Below, one piece after another: positions 4,352 through 14,560 of a stretch of DNA of 64,000 nucleotides. Under the pieces are notes generated by a model, which saw only the letters and a list, made by a program, of their open reading frames with translations, did no database searches and was not told the origin of the DNA. Numbering within the stretch: position 1 is the first letter of the stretch; the number at the start of each line of letters is the position of its first letter. Source of the stretch: a virus; the IMG/VR virus record IMGVR_UViG_3300028393_001967. The stretch is one strand, 5' to 3'. The position numbers and the translations under genes were made by a program.

Positions 4352-4816
4352 ATGCCTAAGTGTTATCAATTGATTGGTGTGCCAGGTGCAGGTAAAAGCA
4401 CTTGGGTTGCTAATCAAGAATGGGCTAAAGATTGTGCATACATTTCTACTGACCATCACGTGGAACGACAAGCTGAACTTGAAGGTAAGACCTATAACGA
4501 AGTGTTCAAAGACTTTATGCCCATTGCTGTAAAGTTGATGGCAGACGATGTTGTCAAGGCCCGTGAAGCAGGCAAGGATATCATCTGGGACCAAACTAGC
4601 ACTAGCATTGCTAGTCGTACTCGCAAGTTTAATATGTTGCCTGACTATGAACATATTGCAGTGGTGTTTAAAACACCTGATGAAGAAGAATTGAATCGTC
4701 GTTTGGCAAGCCGCCCGGGTAAGAATATCCCCAAGCACGTTATGCAATCAATGATTGCAGGTTGGGACGAACCTGAATTAGATGAAGGCTTCAAAGAAAT
4801 TTGGTATGCATCATGA
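4352..4816 (+). CDS. Polynucleotide-kinase-like P-loop kinase (AAA_33)
   Basis: GVPGAGKST, STD, IIWDQT, lid RLASR. Confidence 0.75.
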   Translation: MPKCYQLIGVPGAGKSTWVANQEWAKDCAYISTDHHVERQAELEGKTYNEVFKDFMPIAVKLMADDVVKAREAGKDIIWDQTSTSIASRTRKFNMLPDYEHIAVVFKTPDEEELNRRLASRPGKNIPKHVMQSMIAGWDEPELDEGFKEIWYAS

Positions 4817-5983: not shown

Positions 5984-6298
5984 ATGAGTTTTCTTATTGT
6001 TTTGTTTTTCTTATTGTTTTTTGTGGCTATTATTGTGGCCGTTATTCGAAGGAGTGAGCCTGTGATGTATAATGATTTTGACGATGAAGAAGTAACGCAT
6101 ACTACCGTTACAACTACTACCACAACTACTGAGCAACCTGCTCCGTTGGTTGCCACAGTTGGTGTTATTAATTCTTATCAAAAGTCGGGTAGTGCACAAT
6201 GGTATGTAATTGATCCAGTGGACAAAGAAGAAACCGCCGTGGATGCTAACGACGACTATTACCGTGATGCTGGTGGAAAGATTTGGGATTTGCAGTAA
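5984..6298 (+). CDS. Hypothetical membrane-anchored protein
   Basis: N-terminal TM, Thr-rich linker. Confidence 0.7.
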   Translation: MSFLIVLFFLLFFVAIIVAVIRRSEPVMYNDFDDEEVTHTTVTTTTTTTEQPAPLVATVGVINSYQKSGSAQWYVIDPVDKEETAVDANDDYYRDAGGKIWDLQ

Positions 6299-6858
6299 TG
6301 CCGTGGATACAAAATGTTGCACTGAGCGACATTAAACGAGGGTTACATATTAACCCAGGTGAGAACTCTATGTTGATCCAGATATGCGATCCAGATATGG
6401 AATATCCCGCCCCCTTGTATACCTTTAAGGAAGTCCATCAATTTAAATTTTTGGACATTGAAGAAAATGACAAATGCTTGGATGAGTCAATGCGATGCAG
6501 TCACAAACAGGCTGCTGAGTTGGCTCAACTGTTGCAACACGCATTGGCTAACCATATGAACGTTATCGTTCATTGCCACGCAGGTGTTTGTCGTAGTGGT
6601 GCAGTTTGTGAAGTTGGTGTTATGATGGGCTTTGATGACACTGAAGTTTTCCGTAGCCCTAACCTGTGTGTCAAACATCGTATGATGAAGCACTTGGGTT
6701 GGACCTATGATGAGAATGAGCCCCACACTATCAACGGTGTAACAACTGAGTTTGGGATCATTCTCCCTAAGGAAATCGACTGGGCCAATGATAATGAAAA
6801 AGTTTTCACATTGGCCAAAGAAAGAAAAGCTCGTAGAGAACGAGAAGGCGATATCTAA
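6298..6858 (+). CDS. Cys-based (PTP/dual-specificity-like) phosphatase
   Basis: HCHAGVCRS = HCxxGxxRS; FLD acid loop; TAATG-coupled start. Confidence 0.85.
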   Translation: MPWIQNVALSDIKRGLHINPGENSMLIQICDPDMEYPAPLYTFKEVHQFKFLDIEENDKCLDESMRCSHKQAAELAQLLQHALANHMNVIVHCHAGVCRSGAVCEVGVMMGFDDTEVFRSPNLCVKHRMMKHLGWTYDENEPHTINGVTTEFGIILPKEIDWANDNEKVFTLAKERKARREREGDI

Positions 6859-7742
6859 TGAGTATCTCATTGATGAGTGTTAGCAATATCAATCACGAGC
6901 TTACAGAGTTTTCTATCAATAAAAGCTGTGAGGCAAAGAAGTTTGATGAAGTGTTGGTATTTTCAGATCGGGTCCTGCCCAATTTGAAGTATCAACACAC
7001 CTATCACGATATTGCAACTTCCATCGCACCGTATGATACGACTACGATGAAGCCAGTACCGCTAACATTGGATATATACTGTGACTTCTTGTTTAAGCAT
7101 ATGGGCCCATATATCAACACTGAACACGTGATCAGTATTCAGTATGATGGGTTTTGCGTCAATCAAGATGAATGGACTGACGAGTTCTTGGATTATGACT
7201 ACATTGGATCTCCTACTCATAAAAAGTGGTATCCATTGGCCAATAGTTTGATACAACACGAAGTCTATGATAGTTCGCCCAATGGATGGTACAATGGTGG
7301 TGGTGGCTGTAGTCTGCGTAGTAAGAAACTTATTACTGCACTACAGGATCCTGAGATCAGTGTATTCATTTCAGATAAGAATTATCAACGTTGTGAAGAT
7401 TGGAGTATCTCTGTTCGATACAGGGAGTATTTGGAAAAAGCACACGGTATTAAATTTGCCCCGCTTGATCTGTCATTGAAGTTTAGTACTGAATTACTTA
7501 CAGGATTGAACTTTAGTTTTGGATTTCACGGTTGGGAAAACATACCCTTGTTTTTTACAGAAGAAGAATGTATTTGGTATATTGAGAATTTACAAAAAGA
7601 AAATCTCAAACGTGGTCATTATATGACACGCAGATTTGCGGCAATGTGTTGGATCCAAAACTATCACCAAGCGTTGGCACATTTAGATCACGTATTAAAT
7701 GAAATAGATCAAAATATTAGGAATAATAATTATTCAAGATGA
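6858..7742 (+). CDS. DUF5672-like putative glycosyltransferase
   Basis: IQYDGF, YDYIGSP, NGGGGCSLRSKKL, ED, FGFHG. Confidence 0.7.
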   Translation: MSISLMSVSNINHELTEFSINKSCEAKKFDEVLVFSDRVLPNLKYQHTYHDIATSIAPYDTTTMKPVPLTLDIYCDFLFKHMGPYINTEHVISIQYDGFCVNQDEWTDEFLDYDYIGSPTHKKWYPLANSLIQHEVYDSSPNGWYNGGGGCSLRSKKLITALQDPEISVFISDKNYQRCEDWSISVRYREYLEKAHGIKFAPLDLSLKFSTELLTGLNFSFGFHGWENIPLFFTEEECIWYIENLQKENLKRGHYMTRRFAAMCWIQNYHQALAHLDHVLNEIDQNIRNNNYSR

Positions 7743-7751
7743 AAGTAATAA

Positions 7752-8003
7752 ATGTTTGAAGTGATTGGTAAAGAAGAAACATTCAAAGTTTTAACACTGA
7801 CTGAGGCGATGAATCTTGCCAAGCACATGAATGAGTTTGTGACTATCAAAGGTCAAGACTTTGAAATTGTAGGTATGTTTGGTGTAGACAGTATTCGTGA
7901 TGGTGTTTGTCCAGATGGTGTTAAATACGATTGGAACAAAACCAGCCGAATAGGCGCATCAAAAAGAAATGAAAGGGTAATTGAAAATGAAGAAGATTAT
8001 TGA
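7752..8003 (+). CDS. Hypothetical protein
   Basis: ORF, operon packing. Confidence 0.7.
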   Translation: MFEVIGKEETFKVLTLTEAMNLAKHMNEFVTIKGQDFEIVGMFGVDSIRDGVCPDGVKYDWNKTSRIGASKRNERVIENEEDY

Positions 8004-8661
8004 GATTAGAGCTGCCGAAGGTGGCGAAGATAGTAAACTGTTTGTACGAGATCTGGCACAAGCCTATATCAAGTTTGCACAAAGCCGGGGCTGAACTACC
8101 CGCCTGATAGGTGAGTACCAAGGCGAACTTCATTTAGAAGTACAGGGCACTGACCTATCCGGCTTAAAGAATGAACCTGGAGGACATCGCATACAGCGTG
8201 TTCCACCCACCGAAAGGAAAGGACGTGTTCATACCAGCACAGTGACCGTGGCCATCATAGATGACACTGATCGTCCAAGAGTTGTGGCTATACCAGAAAC
8301 TGATTTAAAAATCGAGTGGTACAGCGGCACTGGTGCTGGAGGTCAGCACCGTAACAAGCACCAAAATTCCTGCCGAATAACTCATATTCCCACTGGAGAA
8401 GTGGCCACTGCACAGTGCCGTAGTCGTCAAAACAGTTTGGATCAAGCTAGGACAGATATACAGCAAAGAGTTGACAAACTGACTAAAACCAGTTATAATA
8501 CACACATAGCAAGTGATAGGCGGCAACAGGTTGGGTCGGGTATGCGTGGTGATAAAATTCGTACTTACCGTTTCCAAGATGATGTTGTCAAGGATCACTT
8601 AACAGATCGTACAGCCAGTGTTAAAAAGGTATTGGCTGGTAATTTTGATTTACTTTGGTAA
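7987..8661 (+). CDS. RF1-like peptide chain release factor lacking domain 1, with in-frame TGA at 8092-8094 (readthrough or pseudogene)
   Basis: MKKIIEIRAAEGGEDSKLF...AQSRG*TTRLIG...NEPGGHRIQRVPPTERKGRVHTSTVTVA...GAGGQHRNK...RITHIPTG...KIRTYRF...VKDH; single frame, 224 codons. Confidence 0.9.
8471..8499 (+). promoter_or_regulatory. Consensus sigma70 promoter inside the release-factor gene
   Basis: TTGACA-N17-TATAAT followed by ACACACATA as at 2449. Confidence 0.8.
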
Positions 8662-8673
8662 AAGGAGTTTAAA

Positions 8674-9693
8674 ATGACTCGTAAAATGGCAACTATCCGT
8701 AAGATTGATGCACTGCGTCCTATTGAAGGCGCTGATGCAATTGAATGCGCTATCGTAGGTGGATGGACCTGCGTGGTAAAGAAGGGTGAATACACTGCTG
8801 GTGATCTGGCTGTGTACTGCGAAATTGATTCTTGGATTCCACATAACATTGCACCATTTCTATCAAAAGGAAACTTTCCACGTGTTTTCAATGAAGTCAA
8901 GGGTGAACGTCTGCGTACTGTAAAGTTGCGTGGTCAACTGTCACAGGGCCTTCTATTGGACCGATACACTGTTCTAGACAAGGTTGGTGAGATTTACGAA
9001 GGTATGGATGTTTCTGAACTGCTTGGCATCACCAAGTATGAAGCACCCATCCCCGCAGAACTTGCAGGTGAAGTCAAAGGTATGTTCCCTTCAGTGATTC
9101 CGAAGACTGACCAAGAGCGTATTCAAAACTTGTCAGCAGAGTTGGCGGAGTGGAAGACTGAAAATCTATCTTGGGAAATTACAGAGAAACTCGATGGGTC
9201 TTCAATGACTGTTTATGTTATTGATGGTGAAGTTGGTGTTTGCTCACGCAACCTTGACCTCAAGCGTAATGTTGATAATTCATTGTGGCGTGCCGCTATC
9301 CGGCACGACTTAGAAGAAAAGTTGAAGATTGCAGGTGGTAACATTGCAGTCCAAGGTGAACTGATTGGAAACGGCATTCAAGGTAACAAGTACCAAATGC
9401 GTGATCAAGACTTTTATGTTTACGACATTTATGACATTGATGCAGGTCGTTACTACACTCCTGCTGAACGAGTGGCGTTTGTAACTGAACACAAGTTGAA
9501 TCACTGCCCTATTTTGATCTCTAATGATCGTTTGGGCGGCGGCGAAACTATTGAAAATCTGTTGAAGTACGCTGAAGGTAATTCAGAATTGAATCCCAAG
9601 CAAGAGCGTGAAGGACTGGTGTTCAAGTGTAACGAAAAGTCTGTGAGCTTCAAGGCAATTTCTAACAAATTTTTATTAAAGAGTGGTGAATAA
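8674..9693 (+). CDS. RNA ligase, DRB0094/Rnl2-like family
   Basis: N-terminal RKMATIR..IEGADAIE, TEKLDGSS (motif I), QGELIG, REGLV, FKAISN. Confidence 0.9.
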   Translation: MTRKMATIRKIDALRPIEGADAIECAIVGGWTCVVKKGEYTAGDLAVYCEIDSWIPHNIAPFLSKGNFPRVFNEVKGERLRTVKLRGQLSQGLLLDRYTVLDKVGEIYEGMDVSELLGITKYEAPIPAELAGEVKGMFPSVIPKTDQERIQNLSAELAEWKTENLSWEITEKLDGSSMTVYVIDGEVGVCSRNLDLKRNVDNSLWRAAIRHDLEEKLKIAGGNIAVQGELIGNGIQGNKYQMRDQDFYVYDIYDIDAGRYYTPAERVAFVTEHKLNHCPILISNDRLGGGETIENLLKYAEGNSELNPKQEREGLVFKCNEKSVSFKAISNKFLLKSGE

Positions 9694-10238
9694 TGAATAC
9701 TTGGGTAACAAGTGATTTACATTTTGGACATAAGAACATTATGTCCTTTTGTCCTGTATCGCGGGCAAGGTTTCGTAATGACGTAGACTATATGAACGAG
9801 CAAATGGTCAAGGAATGGAACGACCTGATTGCTCCTGAAGATACAGTGTACATATTGGGTGATGTGGCATTCTTGCCTGCTCAAAAGGCAGCAGAATTTA
9901 TGAACCGCTGTAACGGCACTAAGATCTTAGTTGAAGGTAATCACGACCGTAAGACACTGAACGATCCCACATTCCGCAAGTGTTTTAAGGAAGTACACCA
10001 ATACCTGCGATTGGTCTATGATGGCACTGTTGTATGTATGTTTCATTATCCAATTCAGGAATTTGATCAACAACATCGTGGCTCTGTTCACTTACACGGT
10101 CATCTTCATGGAGGTGTTAGTGGAATCGAGCACTACAGAGTCCTTGATGTAGGTATGGATGCAACTGGTATGATTGCGATCTCGATGGATGATGCTGTTG
10201 CACAGGCCCTAAAAGGCCAAATCAAAGGGCATCACTAA
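9693..10238 (+). CDS. Calcineurin-like metallophosphoesterase
   Basis: SDLHFGH, LGD, GNHD, HYP, HGHLH. Confidence 0.9.
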   Translation: MNTWVTSDLHFGHKNIMSFCPVSRARFRNDVDYMNEQMVKEWNDLIAPEDTVYILGDVAFLPAQKAAEFMNRCNGTKILVEGNHDRKTLNDPTFRKCFKEVHQYLRLVYDGTVVCMFHYPIQEFDQQHRGSVHLHGHLHGGVSGIEHYRVLDVGMDATGMIAISMDDAVAQALKGQIKGHH

Positions 10239-10239
10239 T

Positions 10240-10476
10240 ATGATCACTGATATGATCGACCGTGAGATCAAGGTAGATGACTTTGTTGTATTTTACAGCA
10301 ACATCTACCGTGTCAAAAGTTTGGGAAAAGAGTATCCCGCCAATTCCGGACGAGGTCGAATTAAGATAAAGATTTGGAATGGCGGTGCTACCAGTCGCCC
10401 AGTTGAAAAACATTCCAAAGATGTAGCTCTTTTGGACCAAAATCAAGTATTGGTTTGGATGCTAAAACAAGGTTGA
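10240..10476 (+). CDS. Hypothetical protein
   Basis: DMIDREIKVDDFV, similar pattern to 4959 ORF. Confidence 0.65.
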   Translation: MITDMIDREIKVDDFVVFYSNIYRVKSLGKEYPANSGRGRIKIKIWNGGATSRPVEKHSKDVALLDQNQVLVWMLKQG

Positions 10477-10501
10477 CACTCCATTAAAACTCTGCTATAA
10501 T
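10473..10501 (+). promoter_or_regulatory. sigma70-type promoter
   Basis: TTGACA-N17-TATAAT with TG extension. Confidence 0.9.
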
Positions 10502-10534
10502 ACACTCATAGCAAGTAACTAATTGGAGTAGTAT

Positions 10535-10732
10535 ATGATGATTGTAGCAAAATTCAAAGATAAGATTGTACAAATTGTCAAGGTACAAGAATCAGTTATG
10601 TTCTCCGAGGACAAGGGCTGGATCTTTATCTGCTTTGACTTTGACAAGATCAACCGTCGTCGTGAACAATTTAAATGGGTCAAGGCCAGCAAAACTCGTT
10701 TTGAGTGGGTTCGCGAATTTGTAGGAGAATAA
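10535..10732 (+). CDS. Hypothetical protein
   Basis: GGAG RBS. Confidence 0.7.
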   Translation: MMIVAKFKDKIVQIVKVQESVMFSEDKGWIFICFDFDKINRRREQFKWVKASKTRFEWVREFVGE

Positions 10733-10733
10733 T

Positions 10734-11021
10734 ATGCGTGGAAAATACAGCCCAACCGTAAACCGTGCGTACATGAATGATCAGGAATGGTGGACAAAAT
10801 ATTCAGGATCAGACAAACCATCTGAAGAATATGTCCAGTATGATCCTGAAGGTTACGACAGTTACGGTTACAATAAAGACGATAAGGATCGTGCTGGTAA
10901 CTATGAGCACGAGTATTACAAAAACGACAGTGCTCATCCAGGATATGCAGATTACAATATCGCATACGATGACGCAGACAGTGAATGGGGTTTTGATGGC
11001 GTGAAGCCAGTAAGGATTTAA
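10734..11021 (+). CDS. Hypothetical Tyr/Asp-rich protein
   Basis: AGGAG RBS. Confidence 0.7.
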   Translation: MRGKYSPTVNRAYMNDQEWWTKYSGSDKPSEEYVQYDPEGYDSYGYNKDDKDRAGNYEHEYYKNDSAHPGYADYNIAYDDADSEWGFDGVKPVRI

Positions 11022-11022
11022 A

Positions 11023-11934
11023 ATGAACAAAGATGAATTGAAAGAGTTTGTATTGGCTAACCCACGGTTGGTCAGTATGAAGCCTGCTGGCGATGGTATC
11101 TATGTGCTAAAGTATTCCAAGCGAGTCTTCTACGATGACTTGTGGAATGACTTTCTTGAAGAATGTCGCGGCACAATTGTGGATGCTGACTTCAATGTAG
11201 TATCACGGCCATTTACAAAGATCTATAATTTCCGCGTAGAAGCCAATGCTCCTGTGTTGACTGATGATACTCCTGTAACTGCTTATCGTAAGGTCAACGG
11301 ATTTATGGTGGCAATGACTTGGCATAACAACGATATCCTAGTGAGCACCACTGGTTCCACTGCTAACGACTATGTTGACTATGCTAAAGAAATGATGCTG
11401 AAGCACTCCTGCTGGGCTGACTGGCAAATGGCAGTGCTGGGTGCTCGAGGTCATACTTTGATGTTTGAATGTGTGCATCCAAGCGACCCACATATCATTG
11501 TAGAAAAGACTGGGATGTATTTCTTAGGCTGGCGTGAAAATGCCTGGAACTCTCGAGTTCACGGCTTTGGTTGTGATGAGGTGTGGCGGATATTTGCTGA
11601 AGATACGTTAAAGTGTTATGCAGTAGAATCTTATCACATGACTGTGGGTGAGTTGGTAGCAGAGTCTAAAAAGGTTCGCCACGAAGGATTTGTGGCCTAT
11701 ACTGTGAACGGTCAAGCGTTTAAGATCAAGAGTCCATACTACTTGACCAGCAAGTGGGTTGCTCGTAATCCTCGCACTGACAAGTTAGTGAATATGGAAG
11801 CCGACATCAAGAAAAACCTCGATGAAGAATACTATCCACTAGTTGACGCGATACGTGCTAATATAGTAGAATATACTGCAATGGATGAACAAGCACGCCT
11901 AGCCTGGGTGCGTAACTATTTGGAGATGGTATGA
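11023..11934 (+). CDS. T4 Rnl1-like RNA ligase
   Basis: ECRG, SRPFTKIYN, KVNG (motif I), FE, EGFV, KIKSPYY. Confidence 0.8.
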   Translation: MNKDELKEFVLANPRLVSMKPAGDGIYVLKYSKRVFYDDLWNDFLEECRGTIVDADFNVVSRPFTKIYNFRVEANAPVLTDDTPVTAYRKVNGFMVAMTWHNNDILVSTTGSTANDYVDYAKEMMLKHSCWADWQMAVLGARGHTLMFECVHPSDPHIIVEKTGMYFLGWRENAWNSRVHGFGCDEVWRIFAEDTLKCYAVESYHMTVGELVAESKKVRHEGFVAYTVNGQAFKIKSPYYLTSKWVARNPRTDKLVNMEADIKKNLDEEYYPLVDAIRANIVEYTAMDEQARLAWVRNYLEMV

Positions 11935-13840: not shown

Positions 13841-14560
13841 ATGACCCAGCTCTATTATAGAAAAGAAGACGGAAGACCTCTTGCCCAGGTTATCCGAGAA
13901 AGAATGAAACGTGATAATAAACGTTTCTGGGCAGGTGATAACATTAGTGAATATGTTAGCGATGTTGAAAAAGATGAACTGATCAAAGAAGCGACAGTAG
14001 CATTTGAACAAGTATTAGATACATTGTTAATTGATCGAGAAAACGATCCTAACTCGCGTGGTACTGCGAAGCGTCTTGCTAAAATGTACTATAACGAAAT
14101 AATGGCAGGACGATATGAATCAGGACCAGATTGTACAGCATTTCCTAACGACAGCGAAGATCGCTATGAAGGTATGTTGGTGGTTAGGAGTGAGCTTCGT
14201 AGTATGTGCAGTCACCATCATCAGCCTGTTACTGGTGTGGCCTACATCGGAATACTCGCCGCCCAGAAACTCATTGGATTGTCCAAATACACAAGAATCG
14301 CCCAATGGTGTGCCCGAAGAGGCACCCTCCAAGAAGAACTATGTAATGACATTGCTAAAGAAATCTCACAAGCAACTGACAGTGAAGACGTAGCAGTCTA
14401 CATACAGGCTACTCATGGCTGCTGTGAGAATAGAGGAATTATGGCACATTCTAGTTTAACACAGACAACAGTGCTCAAAGGTGCATTTAAAAATGACCAA
14501 GGCACTAAAAAAGAGTTTTTTGATAATATCAAACTACAACAAGAGTTTGCACCACGATAA
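13841..14560 (+). CDS. folE: GTP cyclohydrolase I
   Basis: SMCSHH, IGLSKYTR, LQEEL, HGCCENRG. Confidence 0.95.
   Translation: MTQLYYRKEDGRPLAQVIRERMKRDNKRFWAGDNISEYVSDVEKDELIKEATVAFEQVLDTLLIDRENDPNSRGTAKRLAKMYYNEIMAGRYESGPDCTAFPNDSEDRYEGMLVVRSELRSMCSHHHQPVTGVAYIGILAAQKLIGLSKYTRIAQWCARRGTLQEELCNDIAKEISQATDSEDVAVYIQATHGCCENRGIMAHSSLTQTTVLKGAFKNDQGTKKEFFDNIKLQQEFAPR

Follow-up and report, generated by a model that had tools for sequence, protein, structure and literature searches.

The DNA analysed here is a 64-kb stretch from the IMG/VR virus record IMGVR_UViG_3300028393_001967, referred to as the window, and all coordinates are window positions unless another record is named. On its plus strand, positions 7987-8661 hold a gene for a short release factor (RF) whose reading frame contains an in-frame TGA stop codon, which we call the gate. 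A single frame of 224 codons runs from the ATG at 7987 to the TAA at 8659-8661, and the TGA at 8092-8094, which is codon 36 and lies in the context GGC-TGA-ACT, is the sole internal stop. After this codon the +1 frame closes in 4 codons (GAA CTA CCC GCC TGA) and the -1 frame in 7. As both shifted frames close at once, only in-frame decoding of UGA-36 yields the full protein. An earlier sequence-only reading of this DNA had traced one frame from ATG 7987 through the TGA and had noted that both shifted frames end early; the frame counts agree with the latter, and RF homology on both sides of the stop, found with Pfam and NCBIfam models, confirms the former.

The identity of the gene was assessed by comparing the readthrough product with profile models of known release factors. 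The Pfam domains PCRF (PF03462, 2.8e-24) and RF-1 (PF00472, 5.7e-19) both matched over their cut-offs and together covered residues 4-204, with the PCRF match spanning only profile positions 103-194 of 194, that is the last 92 positions. The NCBIfam prfA model aligned residues 4-222 with its positions 107-333 of 347 at 199 bits, under its cut-offs of 400 and 423, and the RF2 and PrfH models scored far below prfA. The PrfH model, TIGR03072, reached 41 bits against a cut-off of 166.65 and covered the GGQ domain only. The RF1 decoding residues are all there, namely AEGGED, Q70, PPT at residues 73-75 (encoded at 8203-8211) and VHTS, and the GGQ motif occupies residues 118-120 (encoded at 8338-8346). 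In the alignment with T. maritima RF1 (IQRVPPTERKGRVHTS against VQRVPVTESGGRIHTS), the residues for the recognition of UAA and UAG, including PxT, are retained. The stop faces the Trp of ...AERKGW... in the same protein, and the alignment to solved RF1 structures is gap-free around it. Both the placing of the stop at the conserved RF1 Trp and the RF1-type PxT motif, which had been called from the sequence, were thereby verified. The gene has the PCRF and RF-1 domains and the GGQ motif of the RF1 class and falls outside the full-length equivalog with domain 1; its product is an RF1-type class I release factor of domains 2-4 that lacks the N-terminal domain 1. The PPT tripeptide is a signature of the short family, occurring in 34 of 49 short RFs and in 1 of 94 full-length RF1 matches. 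A few short RFs (P0121-P0270 set) carry SPT or SKT as the tripeptide; by the Ito tripeptide rule, such factors are predicted to relax second-base discrimination.

Conservation of the stop was followed through a scan of IMG/VR, which gave 264 relatives, and 80 of these loci (67-85% identity) were fetched. The full set comprised 120 unique genes at 45-85% identity from independent IMG/VR, ENA, Logan, JGI and NCBI assemblies. The related phages have genomes of 320-524 kb, which contain 41-50 transfer RNA (tRNA) genes and a permuted transfer-messenger RNA (tmRNA) of alpha- or beta-proteobacterial type, and each genome has a single RF homologue. A megablast search with 25 kb of the window against cultured and GenBank phages gave no match, and the best protein matches were at most 41% identical. 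TGA was present at the homologous codon in all 80 fetched IMG/VR loci and at the Trp codon in 115 of the 120 unique genes, including genes at 45-46% identity. All of the 79 fully aligned genes have an ATG start at the homologous codon and exactly one internal stop. The ratio of nonsynonymous to synonymous change (dN/dS, Nei-Gojobori) over these 79 sequences was 0.13 for codons 1-35, 0.11 for codons 37-85 and 0.12 for codons 86-224, and synonymous sites were near saturation (pS 0.63-0.75). Given that the stop was kept despite this near-saturation, chance retention is excluded.

The same TGA in 115 unique genes and the equal dN/dS on both sides therefore exclude a sequencing error, a pseudogene or a nonsense mutation private to this phage; an assembly error is likewise rejected, as the relatives that share the TGA come from many assemblies. 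Two checks had been set by the sequence-only reading, namely whether homologues have TGA or TGG at this codon and whether purifying selection acts on both sides, and the obtained results answered them with nearly all TGA and with equal selection. A conserved in-frame stop flanked on both sides by purifying selection in frame 0 is a feature that the gene shares with programmed readthrough. The in-frame stop thus looks like a selected, built-in control point and not a defect. In the databases, the 'full-length' proteins of 222-226 residues result from code-4 translation of short contigs (with_TGA=W) and do not represent TGG alleles, and gene callers otherwise annotate C-terminal pieces only (139-187 residues). 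Because callers split, truncate or code-4-translate the gene, the databases hold only fragments or mistranslations of it.

A small number of lineages have moved or lost the gate. In three genes (63-65% identity), TGG occupies the Trp codon and an in-frame TAG follows at Trp+3; in one deep lineage, TGG is followed by TGA at Trp+4; and one gene is ungated, with TGG at the Trp codon and no stop. The UAG-gated lineage comes from samples ERR13176177, ERR4682386 and SRR14302175. The three lineages which lost the stop at the Trp position all have TGG there, and TGG as the replacement in every one of them fits the decoding of UGA as Trp at that codon. In a maximum-likelihood phylogeny with full-length RF1 as the root, the short RF family was monophyletic (100/100), and its earliest branch already had TGA in place of the Trp codon. 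The TAG clade was nested within the crown, inside a 99/96 clade, and the ungated gene clustered with TGA-bearing genes (98/89); some rows lie on long branches, for which exact placements are uncertain. On this tree the TGA gate is ancestral, with the TAG, Trp+4 and ungated variants derived from it. The simplest reading of this pattern would be that selection maintains an in-frame stop around codons 36-40, not UGA per se. The stop at the Trp codon, on which the sequence-only reading had built, is therefore the rule in the family (115/120 genes) without being tied to that codon, as the derived TAG at Trp+3 and TGA at Trp+4 demonstrate. When IMG/VR was searched, neither the UAG-gated lineage nor P0126 nor the LR745208.1 factor (described further below) yielded any relative beyond the records themselves. 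The 1560-nt contig of the TGA-at-Trp+4 RF (L237) also carries a tRNA-Trp(CCA) gene with the pair U11:A24.

The synonymous sites directly after the stop are the most constrained of the gene. Among 105 genes, the lowest 5-codon synonymous variation of the whole gene was located at codons 35-41, and four of the six least variable columns were codons 38 (ACC), 39 (CGC), 41 (ATA) and 45 (CTT). The mean relative synonymous entropy of the gene was 0.85, and the value for codons 36-42 was 0.34; in the resampling test of this constraint the columns were chosen post hoc. These values indicate a constraint at the RNA level directly 3' of the UGA. The window does contain the stem-loop first noticed at 8097-8117; 8 of its 9 pairs form, and the stem includes a G-U and a C-A mismatch. 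It is not conserved, as 8 of 9 pairs are reached in only 16 of 90 unique contexts (usually 5-6 of 9) and its two central C-G pairs are mostly C-A in the relatives. RNAalifold found no consensus structure among the relatives, and a fold with relaxed parameters gave a different, unconvincing one. A putative 4-bp stem, CGCC/GGCG (+7..+10 with +28..+31), is conserved at the nucleotide level but shows one-sided changes only, which do not prove it. The base after the stop in the relatives is A in 83, G in 25, C in 6 and T in none. Among the real TGA terminators of the window, T follows in 7/31 and A, the commonest, in 16/31, so that the fourth base alone does not set the gate apart; the UGA-A context, which had been taken as a leaky one, is not distinguishing here.

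From these observations, programmed and gene-specific readthrough of the UGA is the explanation that we consider probable, with the gate acting as a sensor of termination capacity and the phage factor tied to weak UGA termination. At UGA-36, the host RF2 would terminate most translation and free a peptide of 35 residues, while a minority of ribosomes would insert an amino acid, most likely Trp from the near-cognate tRNA-Trp(CCA), which is phage-encoded too; the replacement pattern also fits Trp at UGA-36. In the complete relative G004, where a pair of tRNA(UCA) genes adjoins the tmRNA and the UGA gate is as in the others, the residue may come from this suppressor. An element in the ~30 nt after the UGA probably tunes termination against decoding. 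As RF2 reads UGA, the output of the factor is expected to be low and to rise when RF2-dependent termination at the UGA is slow relative to decoding. The gate would in this way follow the logic of the prfB UGA by means of readthrough, not frameshifting. In the UAG-gated sister lineage, an RF1-type factor would bring about termination within its own message and so exert direct negative feedback. The central proposal of the sequence-only reading, in-frame readthrough of a deliberate UGA without a change of the code, is supported by the TGA in the homologues, the equal selection on its two sides and the use of TGA as a terminator elsewhere in the window.

Several points weigh against a UGA gate that senses termination. 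An RF1-type factor with PPT is not expected to read UGA, and the gate would therefore not be self-regulating as in prfB; it has no obvious benefit to make an RF1-type factor depend on the activity of RF2. One lineage manages without the gate. No covariation-supported helix and no compensatory changes were found around the stop among the relatives. The 64-kb window is without tRNA genes, and an opal suppressor may sit elsewhere in the phage genome. On the supporting side, phage tRNA-Trp(CCA) genes do exist in the relatives, and U11:A24 is found in 16 of the 22 unique copies. The tRNA-Trp(CCA) is the classical near-cognate reader of UGA, and U11:A24 is the pair to which the Hirsh UGA-suppressor mutation gives rise in E. 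coli. This pair is also common in ordinary bacterial tRNA-Trp, and its presence is therefore weak evidence that is only suggestive.

A plainer role would be that of an attenuator, in which the stop merely caps a potentially toxic factor without domain 1 at a few percent of initiations and senses nothing. We regard this as rather unlikely. The variation in gate position and stop identity and the existence of one ungated lineage fit such a quantitative role, and classical viral readthrough sites, such as that of Q-beta A1, yield a constant low proportion of this kind. However, a weak ribosome-binding site would suffice for this purpose, yet the stop has been kept or re-created over very deep divergence. 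Furthermore, a prfB-type cassette, which is a proven sensor, lies at the same place in another short phage RF.

The possibility that a suppressor tRNA switches the gene on, which the sequence-only reading had also raised, is unlikely, and a little more so than attenuation. In such a switch the full factor would be made only once a phage opal tRNA(UCA) is expressed, and the UGA would be a timer set by the phage and not a sensor of RF2. The combination of two tRNA(UCA) genes with a UGA gate in G004 agrees with it, and the UAG-gated lineage would match the tRNA(CUA) suppressors common in the phage group. Borges et al. describe a 'code change module' of a suppressor tRNA and RF1 in TGA-recoded Jade phages (10.1101/2021.08.26.457843). 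The tRNA scan, which covered the genomes G001 and G002 whole and G003, G005, G006 and G007 only in stretches around similarity matches, argues against it. One tRNA(CUA) each and no tRNA(UCA) were found in G001 and G002, and tRNA(CUA) was also present in G003 (two copies beside the tmRNA), G005, G006 and G007. Six of the eight complete relatives, all of them UGA-gated, thus carry an amber tRNA(CUA) and no opal tRNA that was found (four scanned in part). No tRNA(UCA) was found in the flanks of the 80 RF loci, and no tRNA gene of any kind in the window. As tRNA(UCA) was found only in G004, a phage opal suppressor can explain decoding there, not in most relatives, and was rejected as the general decoder; the switch is disfavoured in the clade.

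The suppressor tRNAs themselves fold as ordinary cloverleaves and have A73; they are not tRNA-Sec and do not resemble tRNA-Trp, and a comparison with their nearest paralogues indicated no clear origin. No target gene with a conserved in-frame TAG was found, and TAG ends 4 of the 92 open reading frames (ORFs) of the window. ARAGORN additionally reported tRNA-like genes with four-base anticodons (tttc, tacc), at G002 227532-227606 (-), which is L055:203-277, and at L030:2481-2581. With their eight-membered loops, these may be tRNAs resembling frameshift suppressors or artefacts of prediction.

It is very improbable that the gene is simply broken or split, either as a pseudogene or as a 35-residue peptide plus a separate C-terminal fragment from an internal start such as GTG 8242. 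The C-terminal calls of the gene callers would agree with this, whereas purifying selection is equal on both sides of the stop and no other disruption occurs in the 120 genes. No conserved in-frame start was detected after the stop in the relatives. GTG 8242 lies beyond PPT, and a product started there would therefore lack codon recognition.

Even less probable is a local or host-specific code in which UGA is generally read as Trp, so that codon 36 would be an ordinary Trp codon. The use of code 4 by gene callers on short contigs and the position of the stop opposite a Trp are in line with such a code. In the window, however, the 92 plus-strand ORFs end with TAA in 57, TGA in 31 and TAG in 4 cases and contain 300 TGG codons, and code-11 ORFs of at least 100 codons cover ~88% of the sequence in the window, G001 and G002. 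Clean protein high-scoring segment pairs (HSPs) among the window, G001, G002 and G004 were screened for in-frame stops, with off-frame and antisense HSPs filtered out. Only the RF gene had an in-frame stop that all four genomes share (E 1e-93 to 1e-117), no other conserved in-frame TGA being found, and the other cases were two adjacent in-frame genes or an antisense frame. An aligned stop (TGA against TAA) at G001 ~121734 (-) and G002 ~95940 (+), within a 235-residue HSP of E 1e-65, probably also marks two adjacent in-frame genes. The sister lineage is gated by TAG, and the tmRNAs of the phages are of alpha- and beta-proteobacterial type, from groups with the standard code. ORF coverage, terminator usage and the screen together rule out a global recoding of TGA in these four sequences and with it the assignment to code 4 or to the recoded phages; the statement that TGA is not globally reassigned was correct, the RF being the sole conserved exception.

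Selenocysteine insertion at UGA-36, suggested by the 'SeC' label that ARAGORN gives to both G004 tRNA(UCA) genes, has a negligible probability and is effectively refuted, since this label follows from the anticodon alone, both tRNAs (77 nt, 7-bp acceptor stem) are 7/5 cloverleaves with a short variable arm and no tRNA-Sec, the stop-losing lineages have TGG and not TGT or TGC, there is no conserved hairpin, and no Rfam family, selenocysteine insertion sequence (SECIS) included, matched at window 6000-11000.

The coordinates of the locus, of its neighbours and of the suppressor tRNAs are collected in Table 1. The RF gene of the window sits among RNA-repair genes, namely a kinase, a phosphatase-like match and two ATP-dependent RNA ligases. 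Adjacency of RF and ligase was observed only in the window and its closest relative (2 of 146 RF loci, both from one contig), and a PrfH-like pairing of rescue and repair is therefore not a conserved feature; a conserved RF-ligase operon was rejected as an explanation. The usual neighbourhood is a tRNA array, as the RF gene adjoins tRNA genes in 46 of 48 loci of at least 8 kb (median of 10 within ~6 kb). Upstream, translational coupling of the small ORF to the RF start is possible, and the loci L166 and L167 have a comparable ORF of 74 residues that overlaps the RF start by 13 nt. Further downstream, a GTP cyclohydrolase I gene (PF01227, 5.5e-40) is located at 13841-14560 and may relate to 7-deazaguanine or queuosine-type modification.

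Table 1. Features of the short release factor locus, its neighbours and the suppressor tRNAs of relatives (window positions unless a record is named)
Feature	Coordinates	Strand	Remarks
AAA_33 (PNK-like) kinase	4352-4816		
Weak match to dual-specificity phosphatases	6283-6858		below cut-off
Small ORF, 83 residues	7752-8003	+	no Pfam match; TGA stop overlaps RF start by 17 nt
Shine-Dalgarno-like AAGGG	7973-7977	+	9 nt upstream of ATG 7987
RF codons 1-35, including AEGGED loop (U1-recognising GG(D/E)E of RF1)	7987-8091	+	homology, dN/dS 0.13
Gate: in-frame TGA, codon 36, opposite RF1 Trp	8092-8094	+	kept in 115/120 unique relatives
Constrained 3' context (mostly ACT ACC CGC CTG ATA ... CTT), candidate readthrough cis element	8095-8124	+	low synonymous variation
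Stem-loop TACCCGCCT-GAT-AGGTGAGTA	8097-8117	+	in window, not conserved
RF codons 37-224 and TAA: rest of domain 2, PPT, GGQ, domain 4	8095-8661	+	homology, dN/dS 0.11-0.12
DraRnl-type (DRB0094) ATP-dependent RNA ligase	8674-9693	+	13 nt downstream of RF; TIGR02306 1.3e-57 (over cut-off), PF09414, PF21189
Rnl1-type RNA ligase	11023-11934		
tRNA(CUA)	G001 174391-174465	-	near permuted tmRNA
tRNA(CUA)	G002 363408-363482 = L129:3408-3482	+	near permuted tmRNA
Other suppressor tRNA stretches of relatives	L243:519-677; L240-L242		

Programmed recoding in a release factor gene is best known from prfB, in which a +1 frameshift is required for synthesis (PMC12421855). The phage gene resembles prfB in being a class I RF gene with a conserved early UGA and in depending on failed termination for its synthesis. 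Unlike in prfB, the homology in the window stays in frame 0, the upstream codons vary, and neither a CUU slippery codon nor a conserved Shine-Dalgarno-like element is present. As the homology continues in frame 0, the event is a readthrough and not a frameshift; with GGC-TGA-ACT at the stop and a +1 frame that closes after 4 codons, the gene lies outside the prfB-type +1 programmed frameshifts. The phage factor also differs in being of the RF1 type (PPT) and in lacking domain 1, its gate lies within domain 2, and the loop is not closed by the factor itself.

A true prfB-type cassette was found in another short phage RF. In LR745208.1, a published 485-kb genome of an uncultured phage, the gene at L336:589-1243 encodes a short RF without PxT (…VQRTSNGRIHSS…), with a canonical prfB-type GGAGG-GGU-CUU-UGA-C at codons 37-38, after which the homology goes on in the +1 frame. 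The presence of this cassette at the equivalent place supports the idea of a sensor, in which an early UGA read by RF2 serves as the control device. The LR745208.1 record carries no annotation. Short RFs with a TGA at codons 52 and 44 were observed in two other published huge phages, LR756502.1 (L337:577-1254) and LR756504.1 (L338:601-1269), respectively, of 26-32% GC, whose genomes are possibly TGA-recoded, and LR756511.1 (L339) has a short RF without an in-frame stop.

Among viruses, the readthrough site of Q-beta A1 is a phage UGA that is decoded by tRNA-Trp at a few percent in a standard-code host. There the stop ends a complete, functional coat protein to which readthrough adds an extension, unlike the RF gene described here, in which the product before the stop is a fragment of 35 residues and the readthrough product alone can act as a release factor. 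In plants, eRF1 is autoregulated through stop-codon readthrough together with nonsense-mediated decay (PMC5397192); the level of an RF is likewise set by readthrough, in a eukaryotic system, whereas the phage stop is internal. The PrfH-RtcB2 system, as far as the accessible sections of its descriptions go (PMC9304027, PMC1586002, PMC6514570), offers a likeness in an RF homologue without domain 1 that, as in the window, is found near RNA-repair genes, and these sections describe no in-frame stop in prfH. Unlike PrfH, the phage factor keeps GG-E-D, Q, PPT and VHTS and has no RtcB neighbour. With a TIGR03072 score below the cut-off, PPT present and an ATP-dependent ligase as the neighbour, it does not belong to the PrfH (RF-H) family.

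Phage-encoded RF1 and RF2, suppressor tRNAs and tmRNA are known from very large phages, as reported in two studies (PMC7162821; 10.1101/2021.08.26.457843). In the Jade phages, an RF1-containing 'code change operon' is written in the standard code and the genome is recoded, according to the latter study (10.1101/2021.08.26.457843). The arrangement described here is the reverse, as the genome uses the standard code and the RF gene alone carries an in-frame stop. The open-access literature searched, including the available parts of the Borges and Al-Shayeb papers, yielded no account of a phage RF gene with an in-frame stop.

The gate connects three unexplained traits of giant phages, namely their own RF, suppressor tRNAs in unrecoded genomes and tmRNA. 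We tentatively propose that a gated RF1 without domain 1, suppressor tRNAs that are mostly amber and the tmRNA might form a termination-control circuit of large freshwater phages which senses and resets stop reading. If true, this circuit would be the readthrough counterpart of prfB autoregulation, arisen in viruses and kept over very deep divergence. The variants of the gate (UGA at Trp, UGA at Trp+4, UAG at Trp+3, none, and the prfB-type cassette) hint at design rules, and a gate of ~60 nt would offer a natural sensor of RF2 or RF1 activity. Recoding-based control of an RF gene is known; what is new is its operation by readthrough, and in a virus. The prfB frameshift is the textbook case of recoding feedback, and a large, previously unannotated family of RF1-type phage factors appears, with very strong comparative support, to show the same principle by readthrough.

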